Virus record (IMG/VR): IMGVR_UViG_3300027708_000013
Source: a virus
Lineage: Duplodnaviria; Caudoviricetes
DNA length: 64,000 nucleotides
Reading direction: 5' to 3' (one strand)
Positions 1-58,675 of this stretch are shown piece by piece. Position 1 is the first letter of the stretch, and every line of letters starts with the position of its first letter. Under the pieces are notes generated by a model. That model did not search any database, was not told the origin of the DNA, and saw nothing but the letters and a program-made list of their open reading frames with translations. The position numbers and the translations under genes are program-made.

Positions 1-557
1 AATTTCTTTTCATTGAGCAAGTTTAATCCCGCTACACACTCTTCTGGACGTAGGTAATAATGATATCCGACTTCAAATTCACATTGTGAAATCCACGGAG
101 TATAGTTAAAAATATCCCTGCCATCATAACGCATACGACTGGCACGACGATATACTTCTGGATCATCGGTCAACAGGCAACCACCAAGGCCAATTTCCAA
201 TGGTTTACTCATGCCAAAACTTACACATTGTATAGTGCCCGATTTGTACATATTAGATTCAAATTTACGAGCATAGTCCCAAATATTAGACCCTTTAAAC
301 TCATATGACCCATGCCAGCGGTCATTGGTTAACATGTACGGAATGTTTAACTTCTTCATGGTCATTGGCACACTCAGATAAGTGTATGCTGGAAACATAA
401 CCATGTCATTATTAAAATTTATACGAAATGCTATTTCTATAGCATGAGTACAGCAATCTGTGGTTACGCAATAAGGTGCACCAGTATAGTTGGCTACCGC
501 CAACTCAAAGTCTTGAATAACATTAAATGGATTTTTATAATCACTTAATTTAATCAT
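1..557 (-). CDS. DegT/DnrJ/EryC1/StrS PLP-dependent sugar aminotransferase (3' end runs off window)
   Basis: Not in ORF track; my translation from ATG 557: MIKLSDYKNPFNVIQDFELAVANYTGAPYCVTTDCCTHAIEIAF...SFGMSKPLEIGLGGCLLTDD, matching the family FE..A/S.T.A and SF...K....G.GG motifs. Confidence 0.85.
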   Translation of the reverse strand, partial: MIKLSDYKNPFNVIQDFELAVANYTGAPYCVTTDCCTHAIEIAFRINFNNDMVMFPAYTYLSVPMTMKKLNIPYMLTNDRWHGSYEFKGSNIWDYARKFESNMYKSGTIQCVSFGMSKPLEIGLGGCLLTDDPEVYRRASRMRYDGRDIFNYTPWISQCEFEVGYHYYLRPEECVAGLNLLNEKK

Positions 558-1071
558 GTAAATGTGTTCCTGTAATCTGCATAGTGTATCTTGACTCTAC
601 CCCAAAGTTTCCGGCAAAATGTGGTACATCGTAATTCCACATCACATAATCTCCTCTGTTCCACGACATAATAGGGTTTCCATCAACTTCCATGTAATGA
701 CCGGACTTCCAATCCTCTAAAAATACAATACAACGCCAGATAGTTGTGGGATCTTTTATGTTAAAATTTTGTTGATAAGAATGATAGTGGTCTTGGTGTG
801 TTGGAAACATATTTAATGTATTCATGCAAAAAAACCCAACACCGATGTCTTTCCATTGGAAACTATTGGTAAATAATTCAATAATTGTATGTACATAATC
901 GGGCATAGGATTTGGCATACTATATAATGCACCATTTAACGTCACATTAACATAGCCCTGTTGTTGCCAGCGTTTTTCGTCCCACGTGTTTTTAATAGGC
1001 AAATATTGGTATGGAAGATCTTTAAAACTGTCATCCCATAATATATCGATATGGCCTTGCTTATGCTTCAT
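550..1071 (-). CDS. 2OG-Fe(II)/cupin-type dioxygenase-like protein
   Basis: HxD (PTHQDH) and distal H (VPHFAGN) plus R.T.Q.TG; resembles 37465-38127. Confidence 0.6.
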   Translation of the reverse strand: MKHKQGHIDILWDDSFKDLPYQYLPIKNTWDEKRWQQQGYVNVTLNGALYSMPNPMPDYVHTIIELFTNSFQWKDIGVGFFCMNTLNMFPTHQDHYHSYQQNFNIKDPTTIWRCIVFLEDWKSGHYMEVDGNPIMSWNRGDYVMWNYDVPHFAGNFGVESRYTMQITGTHLHD

Positions 1072-1427
1072 TCCGACAAATGATCCTGTTTAATTTCCCT
1101 CACACTGCATCCCAATTTTTCAGCAAGAGTATTTTTAATGGCGATGCGTTTGTTATTCCAATCTCGTATCTTTATGGCGCGGCGCCCGATTTCTTCCAAT
1201 CCCAACTCCTGCTCGCGACCGGTCTTTAGTAGGCTTTCTAATTCCCAGATCTCGTTATGTATCTGTACTAAATTGTTGTATAAACCAGTAACAGGTGCAA
1301 GATCAAAATGTGACGATTGATCAAGATACCACTCAAGTTCTTCCCTGTTTGCACCCGAGGTACGTGCAAATTTTACTTCGGCAATGGCCAGTCTATCAAT
1401 TAGTTCAATAACAGGAAATATGATCAT
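1068..1427 (-). CDS. Hypothetical helical protein (DUF6165-like)
   Basis: ELIDRLAIAEVK...NEIWELE...RAIKIRDWNNKRIAIKN pattern; start placed at MIIFP. Confidence 0.45.
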   Translation of the reverse strand: MIIFPVIELIDRLAIAEVKFARTSGANREELEWYLDQSSHFDLAPVTGLYNNLVQIHNEIWELESLLKTGREQELGLEEIGRRAIKIRDWNNKRIAIKNTLAEKLGCSVREIKQDHLSE

Positions 1428-1971
1428 GATATTTTTTTGCATTTGATAAAATTAAATCTTTATTAACCGACCCTATTTCTTTAACAGGAGATCCAGCATA
1501 TACAATCCATCCATTTAAATTTTTATTAACTAGGCTATTAGCACCAATTCTTGCTCCGGTGTCTACAGCTACGTTTGGTAATATAACTGAATTTGCACCT
1601 ACAATGACATGCGAGCCAATATTAATATCTCCAGTTACAAAAAAATGATAATCAGTTTGTTCGTTTACAATTACTATTGATTTATAAAAATCGTTGCTAC
1701 TGCACAATAAAGTAGAGTTTGGAGCTACAGCGGAGTGTTCTCCCATAGTAATTTTATAATTTTTGCCACCCATAAGAACACAACCCGCTTCTATTTTAGT
1801 ATTGGAATTCATAATCAACCCAGTGGAAATAAAAGTAAAATCGTCAATAATAACATTGTCGTGCAATTCTACCAGTTCCGGAAATCTAATACGAACCGTT
1901 TTGCCAATGATTACATTATTGCCTCTATATTTTAAACGAGACGTATCAAAAAATATGTTTTCATTGTTCAT
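1405..1971 (-). CDS. Hexapeptide-repeat (left-handed beta-helix) O-acetyltransferase
   Basis: Repeated [IV]G..[VA].IG...[IL] hexapeptides and C-terminal YAGSPVKEI. Confidence 0.85.
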   Translation of the reverse strand: MNNENIFFDTSRLKYRGNNVIIGKTVRIRFPELVELHDNVIIDDFTFISTGLIMNSNTKIEAGCVLMGGKNYKITMGEHSAVAPNSTLLCSSNDFYKSIVIVNEQTDYHFFVTGDINIGSHVIVGANSVILPNVAVDTGARIGANSLVNKNLNGWIVYAGSPVKEIGSVNKDLILSNAKKYHDHISCY

Positions 1972-2996
1972 AGATATAAGGCCTCGATATCTTTGGGATT
2001 ATTTAGAATATTTTGTATCTTAATATTACTTATATTGGGTCTACAAGGTTGGCAAAATTCAACCCGAGTTTTATTATATATGTCATAATGACGTTTGTTT
2101 AACCAACTGTCACGGAAGTCGTTTTTGTCCCAGTTAGTTAACTCAAACTGAGGATTACCCTTGCCTTCACAGCACAAATAGATTTTACCGTTGGCACAGA
2201 ACACAGGAAAGTGGAACATTTGATGACATTTCTTATAGTTGCGTGGAAGTGTTTTGTTTTGGTTGGCCCAGTATGGTAACTGGTACTGTTGGCTATACTT
2301 GTCTAAACGAGCAATAGTCTCTTTGGTAATAGGATACGCTTGATTATCAACAATTACAGGACGGAAATATAACATGCGACCCTTGAGTTCTTTAACCAGC
2401 CTAAACAAGTCGTTTATTGCTTCGTCATTGTCATTGAGCGGATTGATCAAGCACTTGAAGTCTACATTAACTCCGGCCTCAATTAATCCACGAGCGTTGT
2501 TGCACACTTTAGTAAACAAACTTTTGGCAGTTAAACTGCGTCGTATCTGTTCGTATAAATCTTCTGTGCCAGCATCTATGTCAATGCCAATCCAGGCTAT
2601 TTTGCGTAACTTTTCTACTCTGACTGTGTCTAGCAATTGATCCAAGTTACTTCCGTTAGTGGTGATGCTGGTTAAAAATCCCAAGTCTATGGTATGTTCT
2701 ATCACTTGTTCATAATTGACCAATACAGTGGGTTCGCCGCCGCCGGGATAGGTTATGGTGTGTGTTGTTCCGTAACTGCGAGGCGAGTGGGCTCTCCACC
2801 CAGCTAGTTGATCTAACAAGTCTATGTATTCTGTATATTTCTTTTGCACTGGCTGTTGTTGTCTAAACTCGGCACTGTTGCAATAGTAACAGTCTTGGTT
2901 ACACACATTGGTCAGGTCAATGTCTACTTGAGCCGGTAGTATTTTCATACTGTCGGAGTTTGTCATCCAGTGTGCTACTTCAGCGTATTGATACAT
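1968..2996 (-). CDS. Radical SAM protein with C-terminal SPASM/twitch-like cysteines
   Basis: CNQDCYYC (CxxxCxxC), GGGEP, TNG; C-terminal C..YLCC..CQPC. Confidence 0.9.
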   Translation of the reverse strand: MYQYAEVAHWMTNSDSMKILPAQVDIDLTNVCNQDCYYCNSAEFRQQQPVQKKYTEYIDLLDQLAGWRAHSPRSYGTTHTITYPGGGEPTVLVNYEQVIEHTIDLGFLTSITTNGSNLDQLLDTVRVEKLRKIAWIGIDIDAGTEDLYEQIRRSLTAKSLFTKVCNNARGLIEAGVNVDFKCLINPLNDNDEAINDLFRLVKELKGRMLYFRPVIVDNQAYPITKETIARLDKYSQQYQLPYWANQNKTLPRNYKKCHQMFHFPVFCANGKIYLCCEGKGNPQFELTNWDKNDFRDSWLNKRHYDIYNKTRVEFCQPCRPNISNIKIQNILNNPKDIEALYL

Positions 2997-3985
2997 TCTT
3001 GTATTTTAGGTTGATATTGAGTATCAAACTCACCGGCAAAAAATTTAGCTCTATTAAGTGCTCGTCTTGCCACAGTGTTTTGATTAATTTTATATAAATC
3101 TTGCTGGATTAAATCTTCAACAAGTTCATGGACTTTTGTGATTCTTGTTTGCCAGTCGAGTTCGTTGTCATAGTACTTATGATCGATTATGTCGTCAAAA
3201 ACATCTACTCCCTGAGTTCTGAGATAGTCAACTGTGCCGGGATTGCCTATTATTAGAAATAGTTGTCCCGTGGCCACAGGTTTCCAAGTTTTTTCAGTGA
3301 CAAATACCTTAGGTATAACTGTAGTTTCTGTTACCAAGTTGATATAACTATCAGCATAGGCAGAATGGGATAAATCGGTACTGGTCTTTACCATTAACGA
3401 CACCCTTGCATCTCCTAGCCTGGATTGAATTGAATTCCATTTTTCTAGCATATTGTTGCTTAACTCATAATTATCAGTTCTCATTGAGAACTGATCGGAT
3501 TGACGATGCATACTAAACAAAAGATCAGCAACATAGGGTTTTTCTTGAAGAGTCATCCAATTATAAATTCTATGCGGTCGTGGTACGCCATTTAGGCAAG
3601 ACACTTTGTATTTCTTTTCTATTTCAAGTAAGTCGGGGCAATTATATAAGTTTTTCCGGCACCAGTGATACCAGTGCGGATAAAATAACAATCGTGGTTT
3701 TATTAAATGATCCTGTGGATTGTGACTCAACAATAAAAAATTAAGACCATGGGATTCCAAGTCATTATGCAAGTTGTACAAAAAGTCACGGTCTCCGTAA
3801 TGCTCACTGCCAAAGTCGGCAACAACCAAATTGTGTGTTTTTAATAGTGTTATTTTTTCTTGATCCAAGCACCAAGTAGTCTTGTTAAAAATCGTATCTG
3901 GCTGATTAAAATAAAAAACTCCTGGTTGATTAAACATTCCTGGTGTACCACCGATGGGCACTATCAATGATGGTGGCAATGTCAC
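2975..3985 (-). CDS. Putative glycosyltransferase-like phage protein
   Basis: SCLNG.PRPHR and YINLVTET...FVTEKTWKP motifs typical of phage GT-B/GT10-like proteins; neighbours are sugar genes. Confidence 0.45.
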   Translation of the reverse strand: MTLPPSLIVPIGGTPGMFNQPGVFYFNQPDTIFNKTTWCLDQEKITLLKTHNLVVADFGSEHYGDRDFLYNLHNDLESHGLNFLLLSHNPQDHLIKPRLLFYPHWYHWCRKNLYNCPDLLEIEKKYKVSCLNGVPRPHRIYNWMTLQEKPYVADLLFSMHRQSDQFSMRTDNYELSNNMLEKWNSIQSRLGDARVSLMVKTSTDLSHSAYADSYINLVTETTVIPKVFVTEKTWKPVATGQLFLIIGNPGTVDYLRTQGVDVFDDIIDHKYYDNELDWQTRITKVHELVEDLIQQDLYKINQNTVARRALNRAKFFAGEFDTQYQPKIQECINTLK

Positions 3986-4904
3986 TGTGTTCAGGCACCC
4001 ACGCCATCTTTTCTTTTATTAAACCAGCATCGGCCACAAGTTCCGCAGGATCTCCAAATCTAGCTGGACCATAATTAACCGAAGTTATCCCGTATTTTTC
4101 TAATACATAATCCACAATGGCTTGATTGCTGGTGCCTGTGTTGGTGCCTAGGTTAAACACTTCAGCACCAGGTTGTGGATAGTCATTGAGTTTATAATCA
4201 GCGGCCATGACATGTGCTCTGGCTATATCCCATACATGTATGTAGTCTCTTACACAGGTACCGTCCTCTGTGGGGTAATCACCACCGTTGATAGTAACAG
4301 GTTGTTGAGCTATGCTGGCTTCTAAAGCACGAGCTATCAAGTGTGTGGCACCAGGTTCTTGACCTAGATCTGCACTGAAAGGTTCTGCACCAGCAGCATT
4401 AAAGTACCTAAAGCACACACTGGGTACAGCATAGGCGCCCCAGTAGTCGGCCAACATGCGTTCAGTCATGGCCTTGGTGGCACCGTAGGGACTGATGGGT
4501 TGGATAGTGTCGTATTCTCTGCAAGGCAATCTATCGGGTTCTCCGTACACACTGGCACTGCTACTGAACATTACTACAGGTTTAGTATCAAAGTCTTTCA
4601 CCGCATTCAGCATGCGTATGGTCTTGGCAATGTTGTTGTCGTAGTATTCACCAGGATTGTCCATGCTGGGCCCAACCAAGCTGGTTCCGGCACAGTGTAC
4701 AACAACATCTGGTGCCAGGCTGTGCATGGTGGCTAGACTGCTATCACTGGCGAAATCTGCAATCAAATAGCCATCTATACCTTGTAAGGTATGATCTCTT
4801 TGCTCTCGATCAATGATAACCACATGATCACCATTCTGTTTGAATGCTCGTGCCACGTGGCTACCAATGTAACCACAGCCTCCAGTTACTATGATTTTTC
4901 TCAT
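3930..4904 (-). CDS. galE: UDP-glucose 4-epimerase (extended SDR)
   Basis: VTGGCGYIGSH, FSSSASVYG, YGATK (YxxxK), RYFNAAGA, DGTCVRDYIHV; ATG 4904 overlaps upstream TGA. Confidence 0.9.
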   Translation of the reverse strand: MRKIIVTGGCGYIGSHVARAFKQNGDHVVIIDREQRDHTLQGIDGYLIADFASDSSLATMHSLAPDVVVHCAGTSLVGPSMDNPGEYYDNNIAKTIRMLNAVKDFDTKPVVMFSSSASVYGEPDRLPCREYDTIQPISPYGATKAMTERMLADYWGAYAVPSVCFRYFNAAGAEPFSADLGQEPGATHLIARALEASIAQQPVTINGGDYPTEDGTCVRDYIHVWDIARAHVMAADYKLNDYPQPGAEVFNLGTNTGTSNQAIVDYVLEKYGITSVNYGPARFGDPAELVADAGLIKEKMAWVPEHSDIATIIDSAHRWYTRNV

Positions 4905-5131
4905 TTGGGTTTTGTTTGTGTTAGTTGCCAATTTTTTTCTAGCAAGATATTGTTTTTTTTGCGTAGGTCAATGACATCCTGTATTAAACTGTCTGTCAAA
5001 TTACGATGGTACGCTAAATCCCGTTGTAGCTTTTCATCAGTGATGGGAGGTTTTTGTTGGCTGGCACAATAGGCATAGCCGGCTAAAAAGCCTACCATCC
5101 CAACTACACCAGTTAATAAGTCAATGGTCAT
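4901..5131 (-). CDS. Small membrane-anchored coiled-coil hypothetical protein
   Basis: N-terminal hydrophobic helix followed by heptads; coupled to galE. Confidence 0.6.
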   Translation of the reverse strand: MTIDLLTGVVGMVGFLAGYAYCASQQKPPITDEKLQRDLAYHRNLTDSLIQDVIDLRKKNNILLEKNWQLTQTKPK

Positions 5132-5144
5132 ATATAAAATCCTT

Positions 5145-5348
5145 TTATGTTTGGGTCAATGGGGTCGGGAATACAATAGTTTTTAACATTACATATTGAT
5201 CAAATAATTTAGTTAATTCATTTTCCTCACCCAGGAACCATTGACTGGCAGCTCGCATACTCAAGGCATCAAGTTCAGTTTCGGTCAACATGGGGTACTG
5301 CTCTCGAGCCAAAGTTATCCAAATTTCTCGTTTAGTATTTAGACTCAT
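5145..5348 (-). CDS. Hypothetical protein
   Basis: 67-aa ORF packed in operon. Confidence 0.55.
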   Translation of the reverse strand: MSLNTKREIWITLAREQYPMLTETELDALSMRAASQWFLGEENELTKLFDQYVMLKTIVFPTPLTQT

Positions 5349-6510
5349 GTGTGTGTTTTCTGTAATCTGTACTCATGCGTAGCCACTGTTCTCCAGATCC
5401 TTGTAATATATCAACAATACGATCAACAGTACCATCGGTCCAGGCACTGATACGGCCCATGTGTTGGCTTGGTTTGTTCAACAAAGATTGTAACTTGCTC
5501 ATAGCATCTTCCAAACTCCAAGGAACATACAAGCGGCTTGCGTCGTTGGCAAAAGTCTCAGGGAAACTTCTATATGCTGGATATAACACATTGGCACCCA
5601 AGGTATCTGCTTCACTCACAGTGTTAGACACCCAATCTTGTAAAGCACAGTTAAACAATACCCTAGTGTCGTTTAATAACGCATAGTATTCATTCTTCTC
5701 AAGGTTATCGTACACTTTGATCATGCCCTTTGCTTCAAACGCACGGATACGATCAATGGCACCTTGATCATTGCCACGCAGTTGAGAGCCACTGAAGATA
5801 GCAAACTCTACTCGAGGCAAATGAAAGTTATCGTGCCATGCTTGAATTAAATCTAAATAAAAGTGCGGCTGTTTTTCTTGATCTGTTCTGGCCGCAAAAG
5901 CCACTCGCATGGCTCTTTGATCAAACGGTGTTAATTCTCCAGGCACTCTTGCACGGACTTCATCTCGACCAAACGCCAAGCCGGAGATGTTGTAGATCGG
6001 GGCTTCCCAGCCAGCTATTTTCATGTGCATTGCCATTTCTTCGTTTGAAGCTAATACAATATCCGCAAAACTATCCACCATTTTCTCATAAAGTGCCATC
6101 CACTTTGACATACCCCAGACATGAACGAAATCGTCCGGGTCAATGCTTTGTGCAAGACAACGAACAGCGATCCTAGGACGCATGTTAGGCTCAACTTGAT
6201 TAATAATGTAAGGTAGGCTCTCGATGCCTGGTTGAAACATGTCTTCAAAGTATATAACATCTTCATTTGTGATTTCTCCTGCTTTCATTTTTGCCACAAG
6301 CATCATTAATTGACTCATACCAAAGTAAGTACGTCCGTGTGCATCCAACACCTGTCCGGTTACAATGGCTTGATCATTGCTTAATGTTTCACCAGCGACA
6401 ATTTCATAATCAATACCACGACGCCGAAATACACGTTCGTTCCAGTCTTGTAACTGTAGTGTGTATCTTGCTTTATAGGGCTCTAGGCCCATGTACCAAA
6501 GTTTTCTCAT
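5332..6510 (-). CDS. GT-B fold glycosyltransferase (candidate DNA-modifying)
   Basis: FAARTDQEKQPHF, RVLFNCALQDWVSNTVSEA..LG...LYPAYRSFPE resembles the GT-B donor-binding half; lies in the dpdA-like operon. Confidence 0.7.
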   Translation of the reverse strand: MRKLWYMGLEPYKARYTLQLQDWNERVFRRRGIDYEIVAGETLSNDQAIVTGQVLDAHGRTYFGMSQLMMLVAKMKAGEITNEDVIYFEDMFQPGIESLPYIINQVEPNMRPRIAVRCLAQSIDPDDFVHVWGMSKWMALYEKMVDSFADIVLASNEEMAMHMKIAGWEAPIYNISGLAFGRDEVRARVPGELTPFDQRAMRVAFAARTDQEKQPHFYLDLIQAWHDNFHLPRVEFAIFSGSQLRGNDQGAIDRIRAFEAKGMIKVYDNLEKNEYYALLNDTRVLFNCALQDWVSNTVSEADTLGANVLYPAYRSFPETFANDASRLYVPWSLEDAMSKLQSLLNKPSQHMGRISAWTDGTVDRIVDILQGSGEQWLRMSTDYRKHTHESKY

Positions 6511-6845
6511 CGTGCTTTCCTAAATTCTTCAACATCTTTCACTGCTTGTTGTAGTATTGTAGCATAGTTGACAGCCTGTTGTCTATTCATTATGAGACTA
6601 GATTCGTATCGGATGTAACCTCGAGTCAGCAGTGTCCAGATGTGATACCATCGAGTTCTACTCCACCAGTTGGTTTTACCTGTGGTATAGGTAGTAACAG
6701 TGACACCTGTTTCATCGGATTCGACCCAAACATCATGATCATGATCACTTTGGCCACACTCACATATGACCTTGTACATTTTGGCGTCGCCCCAGGTGTT
6801 TTTGATCAAGACTCCGGTGGCAGGAGTTTCGGGTGTTAGCGCCAT
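6507..6845 (-). CDS. Hypothetical protein
   Basis: ORF with CECG..DH motif; start MALTPE. Confidence 0.6.
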   Translation of the reverse strand: MALTPETPATGVLIKNTWGDAKMYKVICECGQSDHDHDVWVESDETGVTVTTYTTGKTNWWSRTRWYHIWTLLTRGYIRYESSLIMNRQQAVNYATILQQAVKDVEEFRKAR

Positions 6846-7105
6846 GTTCTTGGACGCCAATTTGCATCACGTGGTTTGAAATCACGTTTTTCTTTGGGAT
6901 ACGGGCTCCAATTATCTTTAGGATGTTTGCCGGCTTTCACACGTTGCATTTCGCCCCAGGGAGTTTTTTCATTGTAGAGATGATTTTCATCATACACATA
7001 ACCTTGTTTTTTACAGAACGTGAGATACTCTTCAAGATCATCAAACAGGTCGCGGACTTCGGGTCTTAAGCGAAGATATTTGTTTAACCAAGTGGGCTGG
7101 CCCAT
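6836..7105 (-). CDS. Hypothetical protein
   Basis: 89-aa ORF with AGGAG RBS upstream. Confidence 0.65.
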   Translation of the reverse strand: MGQPTWLNKYLRLRPEVRDLFDDLEEYLTFCKKQGYVYDENHLYNEKTPWGEMQRVKAGKHPKDNWSPYPKEKRDFKPRDANWRPRTWR

Positions 7106-7116
7106 ATACTACTCCT

Positions 7117-7560
7117 TTAAATTACGATTGAAAGACTTGGACGGACTACGTTGTAATTGATATGGCATCCGTTTTCACCGTCCTCGGATACCTCAATTGA
7201 TACATAACGACCAGGATATCGTTCTGCTACTTGAAGATAGAGATCGTCGGCGAGCATTTCCACACTTTTAAAGTCCAACTGTAACACATCCTTGCTGTAA
7301 AGACTTTCCAGCCAACGTTTGAATTGTATAAATTCAATGTCTCTATCATTATGCTCTACACCAATCCAGACTTGAAAATGGAATATGTGTCTGTGACTAT
7401 TGGCTAGGAAACTCACATCATACTCACCGGGAGTACACAAGTTGGGATCTGTAGCTGCAGCTGGATAGCGATGTATGCCTTCACGTTGGAACGTGACCCA
7501 AATCTGTCTTTGGGCCTGTGTCATGATTCTATCCACTGTTTCTCTCAATTCTTGATTCAT
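7117..7560 (-). CDS. QueD-like / 6-pyruvoyltetrahydropterin synthase (T-fold) protein
   Basis: EGIH...HRHIFH Zn-binding histidines, RDIEF, S.EM.A, VSEDGENG. Confidence 0.75.
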   Translation of the reverse strand: MNQELRETVDRIMTQAQRQIWVTFQREGIHRYPAAATDPNLCTPGEYDVSFLANSHRHIFHFQVWIGVEHNDRDIEFIQFKRWLESLYSKDVLQLDFKSVEMLADDLYLQVAERYPGRYVSIEVSEDGENGCHINYNVVRPSLSIVI

Positions 7561-8078
7561 TTTATTACCTCATCTTTGGTATATTGACTCCAGTCCGTAA
7601 AACACTTACGGTCCTGTAACGCATGTAAACTATGACACCAGACTCCAGGATTGGAGGCCGCAAAGTCTCTATCGTCTAGTTTAATTGTAGCATTATATCC
7701 CAGCTGTTGTATATAGGGCAATTTAACCGAAAGCATGGGAACAAAGTTGTGAAACTCTGTCAATCCACTTTCCAATAACCCTTCGGCACAGGCAACATCT
7801 ATATCCAAGGTGCACAACATACCACGGCGTAAAAATGGAGTAATCATAAGTTCCCATGCTTGCCAGGCCTCGGCATCATTCACTGCCAACAGTGGGAAAC
7901 TGTGATTGGCACCAAAATAAATATGATCAATTGGGTATGGTTGTGCATCAGCGGCAGTGATGATGGCCGATTCGCTGTGTACACCAATGACAAATAAAGT
8001 TTTTTTATTGTATGCTGGTGTGTGTTCTACTTCAGTTCCAACGAAAAAGTTCACATCTTCATGTCCAGGTCTATCCAT
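7557..8078 (-). CDS. Conserved hypothetical protein of the dpdA locus
   Basis: ATG 8078 with GGAG RBS (ORF-track start is too long); FVGTEVEHTP..KTLFV, HIYFGANHSF. Confidence 0.65.
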   Translation of the reverse strand: MDRPGHEDVNFFVGTEVEHTPAYNKKTLFVIGVHSESAIITAADAQPYPIDHIYFGANHSFPLLAVNDAEAWQAWELMITPFLRRGMLCTLDIDVACAEGLLESGLTEFHNFVPMLSVKLPYIQQLGYNATIKLDDRDFAASNPGVWCHSLHALQDRKCFTDWSQYTKDEVIK

Positions 8079-8079
8079 G

Positions 8080-9675
8080 TTATTCTCCAAATAGGTCTGG
8101 GTTGAGTAAGGGCCGTGGTTGTTCAGTTTTAACAGGTTTATCGCGAGCCAAATTGCCTTCGATGTCCACCAGTTTACCGGCCATGGTGTATGCATTTACA
8201 ACTTTATCGCCTTTGAATCCTCTGGTTCCGATGATGTCGGTCCAATACTTGCTGTATTTTTTAATAATTTCTAAACTGTCTGCTTGCGTTGGAGCAACAA
8301 ATATGCTTTCCACAATGTCTTCAAAGTAGGCATGGTCTCCGGTGCGTCCTTTGGTTCCGCTGTACTGCATCATTGCCGGATGTTCACCACTATCGAATCG
8401 TCTATTGGCTTCTTGCACTGCTGTCAAATGCATCCAAACATTGTGACCCATCAGCAACATATAACTGAAGCTGTCCCAACTAGTTCGTGCTGGCTCTTTG
8501 CCATTCTTATTAAGATCACCAGGTGCATACACACAAATATCTTTCATTTTCAGCATGTTGCTGATGGGGCTTTCATCCCAATTTTTAATTGCTGTGCCAG
8601 GATCTTTGACAGGCAAGTCAGCCAATACTCCTGTACTCCATTTACGAGTGTCTTGGGCATATTTTTTATCATCCAACACAGGAGCCATTCTATAACTCCA
8701 TTTACCGTCCTGTGGGAATACGTTTTCAAAGTACACCTGTCCGTTGGCAGTGGCCAAGAAAGGACTGGCACAATCAAAACTAATGGTAAAAGCAGGATTG
8801 ATGTGTTTTCTCACCGCACGTTGTATAACTGTAAGTAGCACTGCCCACTCTAATTTGCTAGTGCCCAAGAAGTGCATCCAATCATGTACGCCTGGTTGTA
8901 GCAAATTATCATATCGTAATGCAACAAGTCTTTTTAATACTAGTTCTACATCACACATGTTCTGACCACCCATACTCCAGCCATTAAAATGTGTGTCGGG
9001 ATACTTGACAGGATCGCAATAATCTTTCATTGTTTGATACCATTGTTCAGCATCATCGTGATTGGCACCTTGCAACACGTTCAACACTCGCATACCACCG
9101 TTGTTGATGCCTCGACGATGCTTCATGTAAAAGTCATTGTTGAATCTAGTGGCATCCACAGCTTCTTGTAGAGTGCTGATACCACATGCCAGACTGGCTT
9201 TCTTATCGTGTATCACCCAAGTTGGAATATCCAAGGTCATGCCATAATCGGCAATGCCATCCAGCCATTTAAGCACAGCTTCACGCCGAGCTTGAGCCCG
9301 GGGGCATCCACTGTTAGCCCGCCAGTCACCTTCCCATAGGCCTTTGGCAATTTGGAAACCACCTGAATCGCCCAGCATCACGGTGTTGGGATCTCTATTA
9401 CGAACCATGTCCTCACTCCAGTCCTGCTTGTTAAGATCAAGATTGGCATGACCACCCGAGTAAAGACTCCATCGATAAGGGAACAGGGCTTTCTGTGCAT
9501 CAAGCCAGTTCATCTGTTCCATATCTGTCAGGCCCTGTGGAAAACGTGCAGGATCTACATAAGGTGTTGCTGAGGTATCACGTTGTTTGCCTATGAATGT
9601 GGCATAAAACCCCGAGATGGCTGGAAGAAATACTGCATAATCTTTTTGTTTTGCTGTTAAGTTATCTTGTTCCAT
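8080..9675 (-). CDS. dpdA: tRNA-guanine-transglycosylase-fold protein, probable DNA 7-deazaguanine insertase (DpdA-like)
   Basis: TGT motifs DSGGFQ, LDIP, VLQG, GWSMGG, HFLG, SFDCASP; phage context next to a QueD-like gene. Confidence 0.75.
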   Translation of the reverse strand: MEQDNLTAKQKDYAVFLPAISGFYATFIGKQRDTSATPYVDPARFPQGLTDMEQMNWLDAQKALFPYRWSLYSGGHANLDLNKQDWSEDMVRNRDPNTVMLGDSGGFQIAKGLWEGDWRANSGCPRAQARREAVLKWLDGIADYGMTLDIPTWVIHDKKASLACGISTLQEAVDATRFNNDFYMKHRRGINNGGMRVLNVLQGANHDDAEQWYQTMKDYCDPVKYPDTHFNGWSMGGQNMCDVELVLKRLVALRYDNLLQPGVHDWMHFLGTSKLEWAVLLTVIQRAVRKHINPAFTISFDCASPFLATANGQVYFENVFPQDGKWSYRMAPVLDDKKYAQDTRKWSTGVLADLPVKDPGTAIKNWDESPISNMLKMKDICVYAPGDLNKNGKEPARTSWDSFSYMLLMGHNVWMHLTAVQEANRRFDSGEHPAMMQYSGTKGRTGDHAYFEDIVESIFVAPTQADSLEIIKKYSKYWTDIIGTRGFKGDKVVNAYTMAGKLVDIEGNLARDKPVKTEQPRPLLNPDLFGE

Positions 9676-10294
9676 AGAACTTTACTGAGTTAATTAATTC
9701 GTAGTCTGCGGCAAAGTAATCTTTGACTGCTTTGAGATATCGAGGATTTTGTATTTCTCTCTCAAATATATTTTTAAACTTTTTACGTATGGGATCTGCT
9801 TCACTGACATGTTGTGGTTCATACCTATGATACCTATTAGGCATACCCTGTTCATCCAAGAACACACTGAAGTCTTGTCTATAGTATTCGTCACATAGAA
9901 AAAACACACATTGTTCACTGTCAAGTCCATGTACAAAGTTTACTTGACGCTCGGTGTGGTCGTCAAATGCAATTCTATCAAAAATTAAATCCATGGCTTC
10001 TAGATCATGCATGATAAAATCTGGATGATACAGTGCAAGGTATTCGGCAATGCCCGAAATCCAACGCTCAACAGGATCACGCAGTACCACCATGGCTGTT
10101 TTGATCTGAAGAATTCTATCTGTGTGATAGTTGTAGAACTCCCAACCAAAATCTTTCAAGTTGGGTTTGGTCCACGAGCTGGCATTTTTAGGAATGTTGA
10201 CATACATGAGATCCGTGTTGTTGCTGGACATGCATTGACCATACACATGGCCTTTTGAACTCCACTGAGTTAAAAATCCTGCATCAATCTTCAT
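9662..10294 (-). CDS. Sulfotransferase family-like protein
   Basis: YVNIPKNASS (5'-PSB-like) and VLRDPVERWISG (3'-PB-like) motifs. Confidence 0.6.
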   Translation of the reverse strand: MKIDAGFLTQWSSKGHVYGQCMSSNNTDLMYVNIPKNASSWTKPNLKDFGWEFYNYHTDRILQIKTAMVVLRDPVERWISGIAEYLALYHPDFIMHDLEAMDLIFDRIAFDDHTERQVNFVHGLDSEQCVFFLCDEYYRQDFSVFLDEQGMPNRYHRYEPQHVSEADPIRKKFKNIFEREIQNPRYLKAVKDYFAADYELINSVKFYGTR

Positions 10295-11022
10295 TTGGTC
10301 TGTGCTGGGATAATGTAAGAGTATTCTGCAAGTCCAGAGTCTACGGTGATCATAGCAGCACCTTCATCGGAGATTTTAAATGTTTTGTCTCCACTTAGAT
10401 TTAAAATACTGATAACAGCCGCAACTGGCCAATTCCATGCTTTAGAGATAGTACCCGAAACTCCTGCTTGAAACACAAAGTTACCTGCATGACTGCTGGC
10501 ATCACCAAAGAAGAATTTCAAGTCACCGTTTTCGGTTTTGGCAATGAATGTGGTTTCTTCACTGTTGGCACTGGCTTGAAATTTCAAACGTTGAATATTT
10601 GCATTGGTGGGAACAAAGTCCACACCCCATTTGACACCTTTGAATTTCACTGCTTTGAGTTTGTCATTGATGATTTCTGCAGCCATAAAACGATAGTCGT
10701 TTTTAAAGTCGCCGGCGGCATTTTGAAAATGTACTCCTGCGGGAATAGATTCACCGTTACGGTCTTGACGATTGATACTGAGTTGTGCATTTTCTCTGTA
10801 TTCTGGAATACCCAAAATAGTATTGAGTTTGCCCAAGTTAGGCATACCAAACACACCAATGAAATCTGGATGTGCTGATTTGAATCGTGCTTCTACGATG
10901 ACTGATCTATCTTCGGCCACTGCATTGATCACTGTGTCGTCTTCAGTGCCGGTAATTTTAACTAGGTCAATAATGCCCAGTCCGTGTGTGTGCGATACGA
11001 TATCTTTTAAAAAATCTTGCAT
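10291..11022 (-). CDS. DNA polymerase sliding clamp (gp45/PCNA-like)
   Basis: 243 aa, two-domain size, ends ...ITVDSGLAEYSYIIPAQ; PolB and clamp loader also in window. Confidence 0.7.
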   Translation of the reverse strand: MQDFLKDIVSHTHGLGIIDLVKITGTEDDTVINAVAEDRSVIVEARFKSAHPDFIGVFGMPNLGKLNTILGIPEYRENAQLSINRQDRNGESIPAGVHFQNAAGDFKNDYRFMAAEIINDKLKAVKFKGVKWGVDFVPTNANIQRLKFQASANSEETTFIAKTENGDLKFFFGDASSHAGNFVFQAGVSGTISKAWNWPVAAVISILNLSGDKTFKISDEGAAMITVDSGLAEYSYIIPAQTK

Positions 11023-11042
11023 ATAGTTCTCCTGTTGTATGT

Positions 11043-11072
11043 ATTATACGTGATTGTATTTAGACCTGTCAA
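11043..11072 (-). promoter_or_regulatory. Consensus sigma70 promoter TTGACA-N18-TATAAT with an embedded late-type CTAAATA
   Basis: Minus strand reads TTGACA GGTCTAAATACAATCACG TATAAT upstream of the clamp RBS AGGAG. Confidence 0.8.
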
Positions 11073-12004
11073 CGTTCTTGGTATTTTATTTCGCCCAATA
11101 CTTGGTGTGCTTTGACTGTGTGTAAGGTTCCTGGCCGTTGAATTTCCAACCAGGTGATGTTGTATTGATTGAAATCACTGTGTATGCAGTAGCCTAGACT
11201 TTCGCACAAAGGTATCAATAGGCTCTTGGGCATATATGTCTGTGCAAACGATTCGGCTAGCCCGGCACCATGTGTGGTGTCACCATCATTGTAACTGAAC
11301 ATAAACACACCACCCGGTCTCAGTAACTCAAATATCTGTCTCAGGTACGATTTCATAGTGTCCAAGCTGACATAATTAAAATATCCCCAGCTGAAAACAA
11401 AGCTCATTTGTTGCAGTGGCAATGCAGATAAATCATGATTGCTTATGCGATATTTTCTCAATCTTGTTTGGTACTCTGGAGTAAACTGACTGTTGGTTGA
11501 GTCAAGGAAATCCTGATTGGGATCTGCTAGGTATAAGGGATCCGCTGCCACCATGTACTGTGTCCATTCACCGTCTCTACAGCCAATTTCCAAGGCCGGA
11601 TATCTCCAGCTGGTATGCAACATTATACGTTGTTTTATGTCTTGTTCGGTATCGGGCAATATTGCGATTCGTCTATTGGTTCTAATAGATTCTATGGTTC
11701 CCGGCTGTTGCTCTATGCCGTAATTGTTGGCAAACAGTCTATGAGTTATTTCGTTGATTTGATTGTTGATCTTTTCAATCCTGGGCCCTAACTCATCTGC
11801 CTGTTGCACTAAATTTTCAATTGAGTGTATAAGTTTAATGATGTTGGTTTGAATGTATTGTTTGTGTTCGTCACTGATGTCGCTGACCTGTGACTCAATG
11901 TTTTCAAAATTACGTTTCAACTGTTGCAATTCTTCAATGGCAGAGTCAACTGCCATTGCTTCAAGCAACGATTGTCGTAGTGCAACAAGATTGTATAAAT
12001 TCAT
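11069..12004 (-). CDS. Coiled-coil plus class I SAM-dependent methyltransferase
   Basis: N-terminal heptads; LEIGCRDG motif I, FVFSWGYFNY, LLRPGGVFMF. Confidence 0.7.
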   Translation of the reverse strand: MNLYNLVALRQSLLEAMAVDSAIEELQQLKRNFENIESQVSDISDEHKQYIQTNIIKLIHSIENLVQQADELGPRIEKINNQINEITHRLFANNYGIEQQPGTIESIRTNRRIAILPDTEQDIKQRIMLHTSWRYPALEIGCRDGEWTQYMVAADPLYLADPNQDFLDSTNSQFTPEYQTRLRKYRISNHDLSALPLQQMSFVFSWGYFNYVSLDTMKSYLRQIFELLRPGGVFMFSYNDGDTTHGAGLAESFAQTYMPKSLLIPLCESLGYCIHSDFNQYNITWLEIQRPGTLHTVKAHQVLGEIKYQER

Positions 12005-12006
12005 CT

Positions 12007-14676
12007 TTATTCAAATGTAAACAAACTGTCAAATGTAGTTTTAATGTCAGTGGCTTCAGCAATGCCCCACTCCAGCACACCCAACAAATTTTCCACCTTT
12101 TGATCCACAATGGTCACTTCCATGAGGTCGTTGTCAAATGGCAAGTTTTTAAACCAGTCGGGAATGTGACTTTCATCTGTGGGATAGCCCACCGACGTAT
12201 AGCCCAAAGGATTGTCCTTTAATTTACACACAATGGTTTTCATACCATCCACAATACTCATGGAATAGTTGTCACTCATCATGCGTTTTAAGTTGTTCCA
12301 ATTCATTGCAGCTCTAACATGTCCTGGCATGTTGGCCTTGCCCAAGCGTTTTTCTTCGGCTGTGTATTTGGTTAGATTGTTTACACGTTTGGGTGTACCT
12401 TTTTCCCAGGCCGGACGTTCAGCAAATTCAATCTTGAATTCTCTAACTCTATCCACCACACGTTGTCTAACATCTCCGGTGCCGGTGAGTACTTCCAATA
12501 AAATTTCACTGAGAAACTCCTGCACAATCTTGGGAGTATCACTGCGTTTCAAATCCAAGCCCATGGCCTTGACCTTACCCGGCCGACCCATGACATCCTG
12601 TCGCTTGCCTTCTTTATCATAGATCAACACAGCATAGCGTTTCTTTTTAATGAACAATCCTTTACTTGCTACCAGTTCTCTGCCACCTAGAATAATAGCA
12701 CCCATGTCTCTGGGGCAGTGACAAGCACGTTCCATGAACGCTGGGAAACTTTCATTTACACTTTGGGCAATGGTGTCGTACAGTTGTACGCAGATTTCCC
12801 GCGACCATTCCATTCTACCCGCCGCAACTTCCTCTTTGACTGCGGGCCACGCTGAGAAGTATACCGAGTCGGTGTCGCCGTATATAATCGACGAGCCCAC
12901 ATGGTCGTATTCGCCTGTAATGGCTTCATTAACATGTGCATCCATGTGCCTTGCAATGATGCGGCCAGTGAGTGTCGTGCTCTGACCAATGCGGTGGTCG
13001 AAGAACCTGCAACCCGGGTTGAGGATCGCACCGTAGAGGCTGTTGAGGTTGATTTTTTTGACCAACTGTCGTTTGTCCCAGAACGCAACATCTTCCGGAG
13101 TTTCTGCGGCTTCCTTTTTGGCTTGTAAGTCTTTTCGTTCGGCATACCATCTCTCCAGTAATCCAGGAATAATTCCTTTGGTGTCGTATCTAAATATTGT
13201 ACCATTGGCACTGAGTGTCCATGGTTGTCTGCTGTCAAAGATCATTCGCCATACTTCAGCGGCCGAGTGTACAGTACTTTTGCCCGAGTCCTCCCAGTCA
13301 ATGGTGATTTCTGTGCCGGGTTCGGCATTCATCACAGCAGTGTATTCCACACTACCAAACATGTTTTCCCAAGCATCAGCAAAACTACTGCCTGAGGCTA
13401 TTTTATCCCCAATGTATCTATCTGTCATGATGGGACGCAGTTGAGCCACAACAGTTTCTGGACCCATGTTGAGTGCTCGAATGGCTGAGGGATACAAACT
13501 GTTGATGTCTATGGCACCAATGTATTCGTGTACACCGCGTTTGGGATAGGCCACATAAGCACCTGCGGCTTGACTGTTGACTTCTTCGTCACGTCCTCTA
13601 CGGTTGGGGGCAATCATGCCACGACTGTGTGCTTCGTTGATGATGGCCTGTTCAGTAACAGCCACAGCACCCATTGTGGTGGGCAACAACACTGTGTTGT
13701 CATGTGCCAGTTCATTGGCTAGATCCAAGTAACGTAATTTCTTATCCAGTTTGGCCAACAAGGCCACGTCCTGACGATTGTAGTCTATGAACTTTTCAAA
13801 CTCTCTGTTGTACAGTTGATCCAAGGTGCCTTCGTAGGCAGTTTTATTGCCCACTTCTTCGTATTCGCCAATGGCATCTAAACTGTAACTGTGACGTTCT
13901 TCATAGGTGTATTTTCTATACAACTGCATATAGTCCATATGCACACGACCTATCAAATCAAATGTCAATTGTTCGGCACCAAAGCGTTCAAATGTTCGCT
14001 GTTTGGGAAACTGTCCCCACAAGCACAGGCGTCGTGTGTCGTCTTTGCTCAACACACGATTGATACGCATGGTGGTGTAGGGAATATCATATCCCTCACT
14101 ATTCCACCCGCTCAAGATGTCGGCATCGTCAATGATGTCCAGGAATGTGTTCAACATGTCTGCTTCACGTTCAAACAAGAAACAGTTGTCAAATTTACGG
14201 CAAATTTCTTCTGCCGATTGCCATGAGTAACTCCGGGGTGGCACCACTAGAGTAACCATCCGGTCCATCCAGTCCATGTACACTGATATTGAAGTGATGG
14301 CGTTGAATGGATCATCCGGCTTGGAATAGCCACGCTCGGGATCAAAGTCCACTTCAATATCAAAAAAGGCTGTGTGTAATCTGGGTGAAGCCACGCCGAG
14401 ATAGTTTTCCTCTAGGCAACGAAATATGGGATTGATATCGCTTTCCCACAGTTGCTTGTTGGAGTTTATGCGTAGTTCTTTTTGGAATTCTTTATTGTTA
14501 CGTGTGGTAAAACGGCTCACAGGTGTACCGTAGATGGTTCGATGTTTGCCCTTGGGGTCATCATAATACAGGGTGTAGTTGGCTGGATATTCTCGATAAA
14601 CTCGCTCACCTGCAACTCGTTCTACCACATGAATACGATCTTTATTGCGATCAAACAATGCGTCAATATAGCTGAT
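12007..14676 (-). CDS. Family B DNA polymerase (T4 gp43-like) with 3'-5' exonuclease
   Basis: FFDIEV, GWNSEGYDIPY, DINSLYPS, KKINLNSLYG, YGDTDS, KKRYA; probable start is ATC at 14676 behind AAGGAG. Confidence 0.95.
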   Translation of the reverse strand: MSYIDALFDRNKDRIHVVERVAGERVYREYPANYTLYYDDPKGKHRTIYGTPVSRFTTRNNKEFQKELRINSNKQLWESDINPIFRCLEENYLGVASPRLHTAFFDIEVDFDPERGYSKPDDPFNAITSISVYMDWMDRMVTLVVPPRSYSWQSAEEICRKFDNCFLFEREADMLNTFLDIIDDADILSGWNSEGYDIPYTTMRINRVLSKDDTRRLCLWGQFPKQRTFERFGAEQLTFDLIGRVHMDYMQLYRKYTYEERHSYSLDAIGEYEEVGNKTAYEGTLDQLYNREFEKFIDYNRQDVALLAKLDKKLRYLDLANELAHDNTVLLPTTMGAVAVTEQAIINEAHSRGMIAPNRRGRDEEVNSQAAGAYVAYPKRGVHEYIGAIDINSLYPSAIRALNMGPETVVAQLRPIMTDRYIGDKIASGSSFADAWENMFGSVEYTAVMNAEPGTEITIDWEDSGKSTVHSAAEVWRMIFDSRQPWTLSANGTIFRYDTKGIIPGLLERWYAERKDLQAKKEAAETPEDVAFWDKRQLVKKINLNSLYGAILNPGCRFFDHRIGQSTTLTGRIIARHMDAHVNEAITGEYDHVGSSIIYGDTDSVYFSAWPAVKEEVAAGRMEWSREICVQLYDTIAQSVNESFPAFMERACHCPRDMGAIILGGRELVASKGLFIKKKRYAVLIYDKEGKRQDVMGRPGKVKAMGLDLKRSDTPKIVQEFLSEILLEVLTGTGDVRQRVVDRVREFKIEFAERPAWEKGTPKRVNNLTKYTAEEKRLGKANMPGHVRAAMNWNNLKRMMSDNYSMSIVDGMKTIVCKLKDNPLGYTSVGYPTDESHIPDWFKNLPFDNDLMEVTIVDQKVENLLGVLEWGIAEATDIKTTFDSLFTFE

Positions 14677-14683
14677 GATAATT

Positions 14684-14749
14684 CTCCTTGAGTGTGACTT
14701 TGAGCTCACACAGCTCTACATGTTCGTAAGTGAACGACTCTATATTATA
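14684..14749 (-). promoter_or_regulatory. Polymerase leader: -10 TATAAT, hairpins and SD AAGGAG
   Basis: GTGTGA-GCTCAAAG-TCACAC stem-loop (14692-14711) just upstream of the SD; GTTC-ACTTAC-GAAC hairpin; TATAAT at 14744-14749. Confidence 0.55.
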
Positions 14750-33490: not shown

Positions 33491-33511
33491 GTTAGTGCCT
33501 CGTAAAGATAT

Positions 33512-56638: not shown

Positions 56639-56965
56639 TTAAAAGGGATTGAAGCTGGAACCGCAACCACAAGTGGTTTGTGCTTGGGGATTGTCAATGC
56701 TGAATGTGGCGCCCATGATGTCATCTCGAAAGTCTATTCTGGCACCTTGTAAATACTGCCCGCTCATGCTGTCTACCAACACAGTGACGCCATTTACATC
56801 CAAGCTCCAGTCATCTTCGCCTACTGCTTCATCCAGGGTGAACCCATAACTCATGCCTGAACAGCCACCACCTTGTACAAACACACGCAGTTTTAATCCA
56901 GGAGTATTTTCTTCGGCCAGTATTTCGCGAATTCTTACTTCGGCTGCTGGGGTAATGGTTATCAT
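56639..56965 (-). CDS. Fe-S cluster carrier, IscA/ErpA (HesB) family
   Basis: [15 protein letters not shown] and CGCGSSF. Confidence 0.92.
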
Positions 56966-58080: not shown

Positions 58081-58109
58081 ATTATGATTGTTTTTTTACA
58101 GTGACTATG

Positions 58110-58655: not shown

Positions 58656-58659
58656 ATAG

Positions 58660-58666: not shown

Positions 58667-58675
58667 TGCCATTGG

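Follow-up and report, generated by a model that had tools for sequence, protein, structure and literature searches.

A probable QueC-less, DpdL-type 7-deazaguanine gene module with an embedded glycosyltransferase in an uncultured freshwater jumbo phage, and its possible role in making a sugar-bearing DNA base

Here, we analyzed positions 1-11,072 of the window, a 64,000-nt stretch of viral DNA (Duplodnaviria; Caudoviricetes; IMG/VR record IMGVR_UViG_3300027708_000013), where a chain of minus-strand genes joins a probable sliding clamp, a transglycosylase-like protein and several sugar-related enzymes. With a probability that we put at roughly 0.55, this module encodes a replication-linked, QueC-less 7-deazaguanine DNA modification system of the DpdL type, in which a glycosyltransferase of the GT-B fold and its companions decorate the deazapurine. 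In the mechanism we propose, FolE, QueD and a QueE-like enzyme would make 7-carboxy-7-deazaguanine (CDG) from GTP, and a DpdL-like T-fold protein would process it, the published proposal being decarboxylation to 7-deazaguanine (DG). A 531-amino-acid (aa) enzyme with the tRNA-guanine transglycosylase (TGT) fold would swap guanine in newly made DNA for the deazaguanine base, probably carried by the sliding clamp, whose gene lies two upstream, through a polymerase-like tail. GalE would supply UDP-hexose to the GT-B enzyme, and most likely GT-B, GalE and a short DegT-like protein (mini-DegT) add a hexose or aminohexose to the deazapurine or to its precursor, a substituent that accessory enzymes, including a sulfotransferase-like protein, may tailor further. 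The folds, motifs and synteny described below lead us to infer a DNA target, this order of steps and attachment of the sugar to the base.

The product of positions 8080-9675, originally called DpdA-like, gave zero matches in Pfam and PDB sequence searches, as did a profile of 48 sequences of its family, and the TGT fold is therefore taken from structure prediction. For its AlphaFold (AF2) model (predicted local distance difference test, pLDDT, 88), the best PDB matches in Foldseek were tRNA-guanine transglycosylases (E 3e-8, probability 1.0), and VIA-align superposed it on bacterial, archaeal and human TGTs over ~300-316 residues (Z 18-19, root-mean-square deviation 4.3-4.8 Å). Alignment of the family with E. 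coli Tgt by hhalign (87%) paired D103 of the DSGGFQ motif (residues 103-108), D149 of LDIP and D301 of FDCASP with E. coli D89, D143 and D264, the reference aspartates numbered D102, D156 and D280 in Zymomonas mobilis, and also aligned the LQG motif. All three aspartates are invariant among the 48 homologs. Against the experimentally characterised DpdA2 of phage nt-1, hhalign gave 92.6% (E 4e-7), and against the DpdA2-like proteins of phages ACP17 and BUCT-ZZ01 it gave 96% and 91%. Fold, catalytic residues and profile alignment thus bear out the original call, but membership in DpdA2 does not follow: a hidden Markov model (HMM) of the family left the nt-1 DpdA2 unmatched at E 10 in a search of the nt-1 genome, which is why we place the 531-aa protein, long and divergent in sequence, in a group that is sister to phage DpdA2. 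We hold with high confidence that it is a TGT-family base exchanger, and consider it likely that it acts on DNA with a 7-deazaguanine.

The 531-aa family comprises 879 clusters at 50% identity and, among cultured phages, is found only in eleven PA5oct-like phages, the Sinorhizobium jumbo phage Phosso and Vibrio phage 2.275.O. Since a search with PF01702, the Pfam TGT model, found no match in the genomes of PA5oct, Phosso and Vibrio 2.275.O, the family is the sole TGT-like candidate in these phages. In Vibrio 2.275.O its gene adjoins QueF, YhhQ, QueC, GATase and FolE, and in PA5oct it lies near QueE. For synteny, we fetched 80 related viral contigs and clustered their open reading frames (ORFs); all counts out of 80 given below refer to these loci, many of which stop before reaching the GT-B, GalE and mini-DegT genes. 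A 173-aa protein accompanies the transglycosylase in 71 of them, and its ACP17 homolog directly precedes the DpdA2-like gene (E 8e-11); no member of this 173-aa family matched Pfam or PDB in sequence searches. Two further candidates were rejected: the annotated 'glycosylase' of Phosso (gene 222) is dissimilar to the 173-aa protein, and a 447-aa neighbour in BUCT-ZZ01 is not TGT-like.

The closest solved structures of the 531-aa protein are all tRNA enzymes, in keeping with the idea that it puts deazaguanine into host or phage tRNA and that the phage DNA is unmodified. We regard such a target as highly improbable. The CxCxxC...H motif of the tRNA-TGT zinc subdomain is absent from the 531-aa protein, which has one cysteine (C381) after D301, and the conserved columns of the 48 homologs contain no Cys/His cluster. 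In addition, profile comparison puts DNA-acting DpdA2 enzymes closest among its functional relatives, its gene shows linkage to those for the family B DNA polymerase (polB) and the clamp, and the DNA of PA5oct is modified at G in a phage whose only TGT-like protein belongs to the 531-aa family. The tail of the enzyme, which copies the polymerase C-terminus, likewise argues against a tRNA substrate.

This disordered tail resembles the extreme C-terminus of the polymerase of the same phage. The window pair is LLNPDLFGE (transglycosylase) and TTFDSLFTFE (polymerase); Vibrio 2.275.O has NNNDLFGW and NNTDLFDW, PA5oct has FNSLF and FDSLFGW, and the DpdA2-like protein of ACP17 ends in LDELFE. An F..LF motif occurs within the last 70 residues of 66 of 78 transglycosylase homologs but in none (0 of 903) of the control stretches taken from these proteins, and the matching (F/N)xxLF-type peptides co-vary between phages (window 8080-8230 for the tail and 12007-12040 for polB; loci L001, L003, L099, L100, and L101). 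In T4-type phages (T4, RB69), the polymerase C-terminus is the clamp-binding peptide. Mimicry of the phage's own polymerase therefore suggests that the transglycosylase may be tethered to the clamp, with DNA as its substrate, and that the two peptides may share a docking site; as far as we can tell, this argument is new. Prediction of a clamp-tail complex lent it weak support, with a score of 0.38 (best of three controls, 0.00), runs agreeing in at least 44% of contacts and a partner pLDDT of at least 36. Among solved complexes, 58 of 80 attained the mark set for such predictions, as did 2 of 110 mismatched pairs, and scores of 0.60 or below were seen for only 7 of these 80 solved complexes, plus both mismatches that passed.

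The clamp itself is a 243-aa protein present in 78 of the 80 loci, with polB alongside in all but one of those. Its protein-language-model neighbours in Atlas are named sliding clamp, gp45 or PCNA (0.93-0.95), and its homologs in PA5oct, Vibrio 2.275.O and Phosso share 37, 33, and 33% identity, the Phosso copy being annotated as a clamp. From size, position, language-model neighbours and the Phosso annotation, we consider it a probable sliding clamp. The PA5oct homolog, gp0314 (L003:8912-9658), is annotated as a virion structural protein detected by electrospray ionization tandem mass spectrometry (ESI-MS/MS), which is odd for a replication clamp.

FolE, QueD and QueE are known to make CDG from GTP. 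None of the three lies in the window, and we used as its left-hand continuation a JGI lake-metagenome contig (locus L004) that matches window positions 1-11071 with 0 mismatches over 11,071 bases and reaches ~9.5 kb beyond the left end. Past the left edge it encodes, in order, an AMP-forming ligase on the opposite strand, FolE, a purine phosphoribosyltransferase (PRTase), QueD and a QueE-like radical S-adenosylmethionine (SAM) enzyme of 283 aa with 48% identity to the annotated BUCT-ZZ01 QueE; FolE, QueD and the QueE-like gene lie 1.4-6.4 kb from the window. The two radical SAM enzymes of the window (342 and 372 aa), tried as QueE candidates, show no similarity to PA5oct QueE. Searching beyond the window for the missing pathway genes, as first suggested, thus recovered FolE and a QueE-like gene, but a search for QueC came up empty in the window, in three large contigs of relatives, and in PA5oct and Phosso, whose genomes are complete.

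The QueD-like call within the window proved sound in a more specific form. Residues 52-60 of this 147-aa protein read LANSHRHIF, an exact match to the DpdL signature (L52xxxH56-R-H58-x-F60), and L52, H56, H58, and F60 are invariant among 10 homologs. According to Cui et al. (PMC10516641), LxxxHRHxF in place of the CxxxHGH of QueD marks DpdL, the proposed CDG decarboxylase. In agreement with this, tblastn matched the protein to phiST-type phages (E 5e-8, 33% identity) and ACP17 (E 5e-33), and also to PA5oct and Phosso; a PTPS assignment in Atlas is a further lead, and similarity to the phage's own QueD is weak (E 0.027). Within the available sequence, the DpdL-like gene occurs with DpdA-like, FolE, QueD, and QueE genes and without QueC. 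Presence of DpdL and absence of QueC together imply that the base scaffold should be CDG or DG rather than preQ0, preQ1, G+ or 7-amido-7-deazaguanine (ADG). In the study of Cui et al., ACP17 DpdL and DpdA failed to reconstitute 2'-deoxy-7-deazaguanosine (dDG), and a possible need for other enzymes was suggested, with no mention of the glycosyltransferase (PMC10516641).

The FolE-QueD interval holds either a PRTase (L004, PA5oct, BUCT-ZZ01) or a 134-aa HIT-domain protein (17 loci); coordinates for these genes are L004:13183-13734, L026:16186-16590, and L003:13946-14380. These proteins may recycle guanine freed by base exchange, or may make a deazapurine nucleotide. The second role would fit a route in which a PRTase or HIT protein makes the nucleotide, the polymerase incorporates it before or during replication, and the TGT-like enzyme only proofreads or salvages. 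The placement of the PRTase between FolE and QueD in L004, next to QueE in PA5oct and again in BUCT-ZZ01, with HIT as its replacement elsewhere, favours such a route. We nevertheless think it very unlikely, since the module showed no kinase, reductase or dGTP-clearing enzyme, every phage deazaguanine system tested so far acts after replication (PMC10516641), and a PRTase could equally be explained by recycling of released guanine into GTP for FolE. The ligase on the opposite strand (L004:11246-12328) is a 360-aa AMP-forming acyl/aryl ligase that converges on the DegT gene and occurs in only 6 of the 80 loci; activation of the CDG carboxyl group is one possible role.

Sugar genes lie inside the deazaguanine set of this module. 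The 392-aa protein originally called GT-B is indeed predicted to have the two Rossmann domains of that fold. Foldseek matched it to glycogen synthase, OtsA, BshA, MshA and PimB' (E ~1e-10, probability 1.0), GT4 clusters in Atlas reached template-modelling (TM) scores of 0.60-0.66, and its profile found WlaC in the PDB (E 0.003); matches to Pfam Glycos_transf_1 (E 0.03-0.075) were below cut-offs. The family has at least ~8,000 metagenome matches. GalE was confirmed by the TIGR01179 equivalog (290.9 bits, cut-off 262.3) and Pfam Epimerase (3e-48). The DegT aminotransferase call held as to family (PF01041) but not as to a full enzyme, since the 205-aa protein falls short of the two-domain length of ~360-400 aa and instead represents a conserved mini form: its homologs are 192-224 aa long, and profile positions ~84-168 and >255 are largely missing. 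The motifs FE..A..TGAP, WD.AR, and SFG..K, the last including K118 of the pyridoxal phosphate (PLP)-lysine motif, are conserved among 35 homologs.

GT-B, GalE and mini-DegT occur in 55, 38, and 36 of the 80 loci, respectively, and in most related contigs they are placed between the transglycosylase/DpdL genes and FolE, with GalE directly after GT-B. In one relative a single 419-aa ORF (L095:15497-16756) fuses mini-DegT to FolE, and in other relatives the two genes abut. Cultured phages show the same association. PA5oct has the order TGT-like (gp0316), GT-B (gp0317), DpdL; ACP17 has the 173-aa homolog, DpdA2-like, GT-B, DpdL, QueE; Phosso has polB, a small ORF, clamp, the annotated 'glycosylase', DpdL, GT-B, a small ORF, FolE; in BUCT-ZZ01 GT-B follows DpdL, and in BUDD/X1 and BCSR5 GT-B lies ~3 kb or less from DpdL. 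GT-B is therefore beside or near DpdL across six unrelated groups of cultured phages, and 18 of 23 isolate records with a member of the GT-B family have DpdL within a few kb. Co-conservation of sugar genes with dpdA accordingly extends to GT-B, GalE and mini-DegT, but not to the other genes of the proposed kit (0-10 of 80 loci). We consider it reasonably probable that GT-B belongs to the deazaguanine pathway.

Several observations weigh against a sugar-bearing deazapurine made in this way. PF01702 is matched neither by the 531-aa protein nor by any of its 48 homologs, and, as noted above, the protein lacks the zinc site of tRNA TGTs. For the clamp, language-model neighbours, size and position stand behind the name given in the original prediction, but no Pfam or PDB profile matched it and hhalign against T4 gp45 gave 3%; the score of the predicted clamp-tail complex is weak. 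QueC or a second transglycosylase is possible elsewhere in the genome of this phage. The AF2 model of GT-B is of moderate quality (pLDDT 71.5), and the likeness of the protein is to GT4, GT5 and GT20 enzymes of a generic kind rather than to the DNA glucosyltransferases of T4. At C7, DG offers no evident group to which a sugar could be attached. The Cellulophaga phage phiST has DpdL and plain dDG with no match to GT-B, so DpdL-type systems work without a sugar. Finally, pathways for surface polysaccharides and protein glycosylation also typically include GalE, DegT-type enzymes, acetyltransferases and sulfotransferases.

It is conceivable, then, that the module makes plain dDG or the deoxynucleoside of CDG (dCDG), as in phiST, and that the sugar genes and the accessory genes, merely co-transcribed with replication genes, act elsewhere, for instance on virion proteins, on the host envelope or on a different nucleotide. 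The lack of a C7 handle on DG, the absence of a GT-B match from the DpdL-bearing, dDG-containing phiST-type phages, the polysaccharide-type accessory enzymes, the generic GT4 character of GT-B and a weakly GT-A-like gene elsewhere in the window would all fit. However, GT-B lies inside the deazaguanine set itself, in the DpdA-like/DpdL interval of PA5oct and ACP17 and in the DpdL/FolE interval here and in Phosso; the linkage to DpdL in isolate records and the abutment of mini-DegT and FolE, once as a fusion, point the same way, and we rate the plain-base alternative as rather unlikely. A final base that carries a sugar is, from these gene arrangements, plausible at a little under even odds. Of the hypermodified base beyond preQ0, preQ1, G+ and ADG that was originally envisaged, the part resting on the synteny of GT-B, GalE and mini-DegT stands, whereas the scaffold would be CDG or DG and the sugar attachment is read from context.

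The genes of the chain were found as first described: 17 minus-strand genes run from 11022 to the left window end, mostly with overlaps of 4-20 nt, behind a consensus promoter (TTGACA-18-TATAAT at 11072-11043(-), 12/12 match). This promoter-like site occurs once in 64 kb, where 0.05 occurrences would be expected. A similar -35/-10 pair precedes the clamp gene in relatives, with the motif TCTAAATA recurring in the spacer. The TCTAAATA spacer element is kept upstream of clamp genes in many relatives (L017-L096) and may represent a phage-specific promoter class. Pfam detects only four genes of the chain (GalE, radical SAM, hexapeptide acetyltransferase, and DegT). The order that recurs in the 80 loci is polB, methyltransferase, clamp, [sulfotransferase-like], TGT-like, 173-aa protein, DpdL, [89-aa protein], GT-B, GalE, mini-DegT, FolE, HIT or PRTase, QueD. 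The features of the module and its two context genes, all on the minus strand, are as follows.

12007..14709, minus strand: family B DNA polymerase (900 aa), C-terminus TTFDSLFTFE; context gene
11069..12004, minus strand: class I SAM methyltransferase (311 aa); context gene
11043..11072, minus strand: sigma-70 consensus promoter-like site, 20 nt upstream of the clamp start codon
10291..11022, minus strand: probable sliding clamp, 243 aa (phrog_12062, language-model neighbours; 78/80 loci)
9662..10294, minus strand: sulfotransferase-like protein, 210 aa, accessory (Sulfotransfer_2 E 0.027; 26/80 loci)
8080..9675, minus strand: TGT-fold base-exchange enzyme, 531 aa (predicted fold, catalytic Asp residues)
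7557..8078, minus strand: conserved 173-aa protein (71/80 loci)
7117..7560, minus strand: DpdL-like T-fold protein, 147 aa (LxxxHRHxF signature, phrog_17812)
6836..7105, minus strand: small protein, 89 aa, between DpdL and GT-B (27/80 loci)
6507..6845, minus strand: small protein, 112 aa, rare (6/80 loci)
5332..6510, minus strand: GT4-like GT-B glycosyltransferase, 392 aa (predicted fold; 55/80 loci)
4901..5348, minus strand: two small ORFs, 67 and 76 aa, phage-specific (0/80 loci)
3930..4931, minus strand: UDP-glucose 4-epimerase GalE (TIGR01179, Pfam Epimerase; 38/80 loci)
2975..3985, minus strand: 336-aa protein, dispersed paralog family (10/80 loci)
1968..2996, minus strand: radical SAM enzyme (342 aa), viperin-like at best, accessory (PF04055 4.6e-13; 2/80 loci)
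1405..1971, minus strand: hexapeptide-repeat acetyltransferase, accessory (Hexapep 3.8e-13; 0/80 loci)
1068..1442, minus strand: 124-aa partner of the radical SAM enzyme (2/80 loci)
550..1071, minus strand: possible cupin/hydroxylase, 173 aa, accessory (Asp_Arg_Hydrox E 0.019)
1..557, minus strand: mini-DegT PLP enzyme, 205 aa, last 20 residues beyond the window (PF01041 4.6e-14)

What had been described as a full sugar-modification kit thus resolves into a conserved core of GT-B, GalE and mini-DegT and a remainder that forms a rare, low-GC cassette. The 336-aa protein occurs in 10 of 80 loci, the radical SAM enzyme and the 124-aa protein in 2 each, the cupin in 1 and the acetyltransferase in none. 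These rare genes are low in GC (acetyltransferase, 31.7%, with 22% at third codon positions; window, 42.3%), and the cassette sits at the GalE-DegT junction, where relatives have different inserts. Rarity among relatives and low GC make the cassette look like a recently acquired add-on. Its genes may tailor the substituent further. The radical SAM and hexapeptide acetyltransferase calls are upheld by Pfam; the former enzyme, always followed by the 124-aa gene, matches viperin_w_prok with E 1.2e-16 yet below that model's cut-off, and the latter is NeuD/WcaF-like. In contrast, the 'GT-like' call for the 336-aa protein gained no support: no family member matches Pfam or the PDB, the window protein has no NCBIfam match either, and nothing confirmed the resemblance of its xTEK motif to fucosyltransferases. 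Paralogs of this family lie at several positions in relatives. The 'dioxygenase' call is left with a single Asp_Arg_Hydrox match at E 0.019, and the one weak homolog of this cupin (L034) is at the corresponding GalE-DegT junction. B12-binding radical SAM enzymes (~515-710 aa; L071:7391-8938, family F25 in 8 loci) are inserted variably in relatives, another sign of swappable tailoring genes.

The sulfotransferase-like protein, upstream of the transglycosylase, has motifs that agree with its label, PKNASS and RDPVERWIS, with K36, R72, P74, and R77 conserved in the family; the Pfam match is weak, and the heparan sulfate sulfotransferases that lead its PDB list do so only at E 0.2. Binding of 3'-phosphoadenosine-5'-phosphosulfate typically involves a 5'-phosphosulfate-binding motif (5'-PSB), PKxxS/T, and a 3'-phosphate-binding motif (3'-PB), RDPxxRxxS. 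Extended to its furthest, our interpretation would be that in PA5oct, ACP17, BUCT-ZZ01, Phosso and this phage guanine is replaced by a glycosylated 7-deazapurine through a clamp-tethered transglycosylase that follows the replication fork, and that here a swappable cassette goes on to aminate, acetylate or sulfate the sugar; we offer this only tentatively.

The source of the module appears to be an uncultured freshwater jumbo phage. No cultured phage has DNA near-identical to the window, and the closest polymerases (for 12007-14709) are those of Phosso (50% identity), Atu_ph07 (46%) and Vibrio 2.275.O (44%). A related 149-kb contig has a CheckV completeness of 43%, from which we estimate a genome of roughly 350 kb. 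The SAM methyltransferase (11069-12004) has a coiled N-terminal part, lies between polB and clamp in 72 of 80 relatives and is not of a DNA-methylase Pfam type. Elsewhere, positions 31208-34360 and 19619-20056 encode a ClpB-like disaggregase (760 aa), a DnaJ-like co-chaperone (282 aa) and a ferritin-like protein (145 aa). At 56639-58691, the 372-aa radical SAM enzyme adjoins an A-type Fe-S carrier (PF01521) and an Fe/Mn superoxide dismutase; radical SAM relatives of this enzyme sit within the deazaguanine modules of L071, L040, and L051. A 313-aa protein (29352-30293) with a weak match to Anp1, a GT-A mannosyltransferase (E 1e-4), may be a second glycosyltransferase, encoded away from the module.

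To our knowledge, every natural DNA glycosylation places the sugar on a hydroxylated pyrimidine, and the known 7-deazaguanines of DNA carry small groups only (cyano, amido, aminomethyl, formyl, methyl, carboxyl, or hydrogen). Our literature search found no description of a glycosylated deazaguanine in DNA. If the proposal is true, the product would be the first sugar-bearing purine in natural DNA and a new class of DNA base, and would bear on restriction, CRISPR and glycosylase-type defences and on the sequencing of such DNA. The polymerase-like tail suggests that complete post-replicative base replacement could be coupled to the replisome. Cultured phages that share GT-B and DpdL (PA5oct, ACP17, BUCT-ZZ01, Phosso, BUDD/X1, and BCSR5) make the prediction directly testable.

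Comparison with known systems places the module as follows. The glucosyl-hydroxymethylcytosine system of T4, with its alpha- and beta-glucosyltransferases, parallels the present proposal, in which a phage GT-B enzyme would add a UDP-hexose to a modified DNA base after replication. In T4, however, a hydroxymethyl group on a pyrimidine is the acceptor, and the enzymes fall into other GT families; none of the top 50 structural matches of GT-B is a T4 glucosyltransferase, no hydroxymethylase was seen in the window, and a hydroxymethylpyrimidine route was set aside, no thymidylate-synthase-like or kinase genes having been found in the window. Glycosylation of tRNA queuosine by QTMAN/GTDC1, a GT4-type mannosyltransferase, offers a precedent for a GT4-type enzyme acting on a 7-deazaguanine derivative. 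A bacterial QTMAN_N cluster is among the language-model neighbours of GT-B (rank 44, score 0.97), which is a lead only, and GT-B has no Pfam QTMAN_N match. In that system the acceptor is the cyclopentenediol of queuosine in tRNA, whereas the window pathway cannot make queuosine.

The DpdA2 enzymes of nt-1 and VH7D resemble the 531-aa protein in being too divergent from DpdA1 for PSI-BLAST or Pfam (Hutinet, 2019, PMC6884629; Cui, 2023), and the nt-1 enzyme shares its DSGG(F/L)Q, (L/F)D(I/E)IP, HxLG, and S(F/Y)D motifs; in ACP17 and BUCT-ZZ01 a DpdA2-like protein is paired with the same DpdL and GT-B genes. The window protein is ~70-110 residues longer than these DpdA2 enzymes and its FDCASP nucleophile motif is closer to tRNA TGTs, and nt-1 has QueC and inserts preQ0, unlike the window system, for which no QueC was found. 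PA5oct (Wroclawvirus) is similar in its clamp (37%), TGT-like protein (34%), GT-B (E 1.6e-13), DpdL-like protein (52%), PRTase-like protein and QueE, all downstream of polB, and differs in lacking the GalE/mini-DegT pair in the form seen here and the accessory cassette. PA5oct DNA withstands digestion at G sites by five restriction enzymes and is restricted by nucleases that recognise modified G (PMC12191111). The chemistry of this modified G is unreported, and the END nuclease preprint names QueE and PTPS, with no transglycosylase or glycosyltransferase (PMC12191111); the 531-aa family would supply the transglycosylase missing from PA5oct-like phages.

The closest parallel in pathway is phiST, in which FolE, QueD, QueE, DpdL and DpdA3 lead to replacement of all G by dDG (Cui, Hutinet et al., Nucleic Acids Research, 2023, PMC10516641). 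Both systems have FolE, QueD and QueE without QueC, a QueD paralog with LxxxHRHxF, a TGT-superfamily transglycosylase and adjoining polymerase genes. They differ in that the transglycosylase of phiST is DpdA3 and the one here is a 531-aa DpdA2-related form, and in that GT-B, GalE, mini-DegT and the 173-aa protein are embedded here, whereas phiST has no GT-B match and plain dDG. Set beside these systems, the deazaguanine part of the module is a DpdL-type system with a distinct transglycosylase subfamily, and, with GT-B, GalE and mini-DegT embedded in it, a sugar-bearing deazapurine becomes a hypothesis to be taken seriously and open to experiment.

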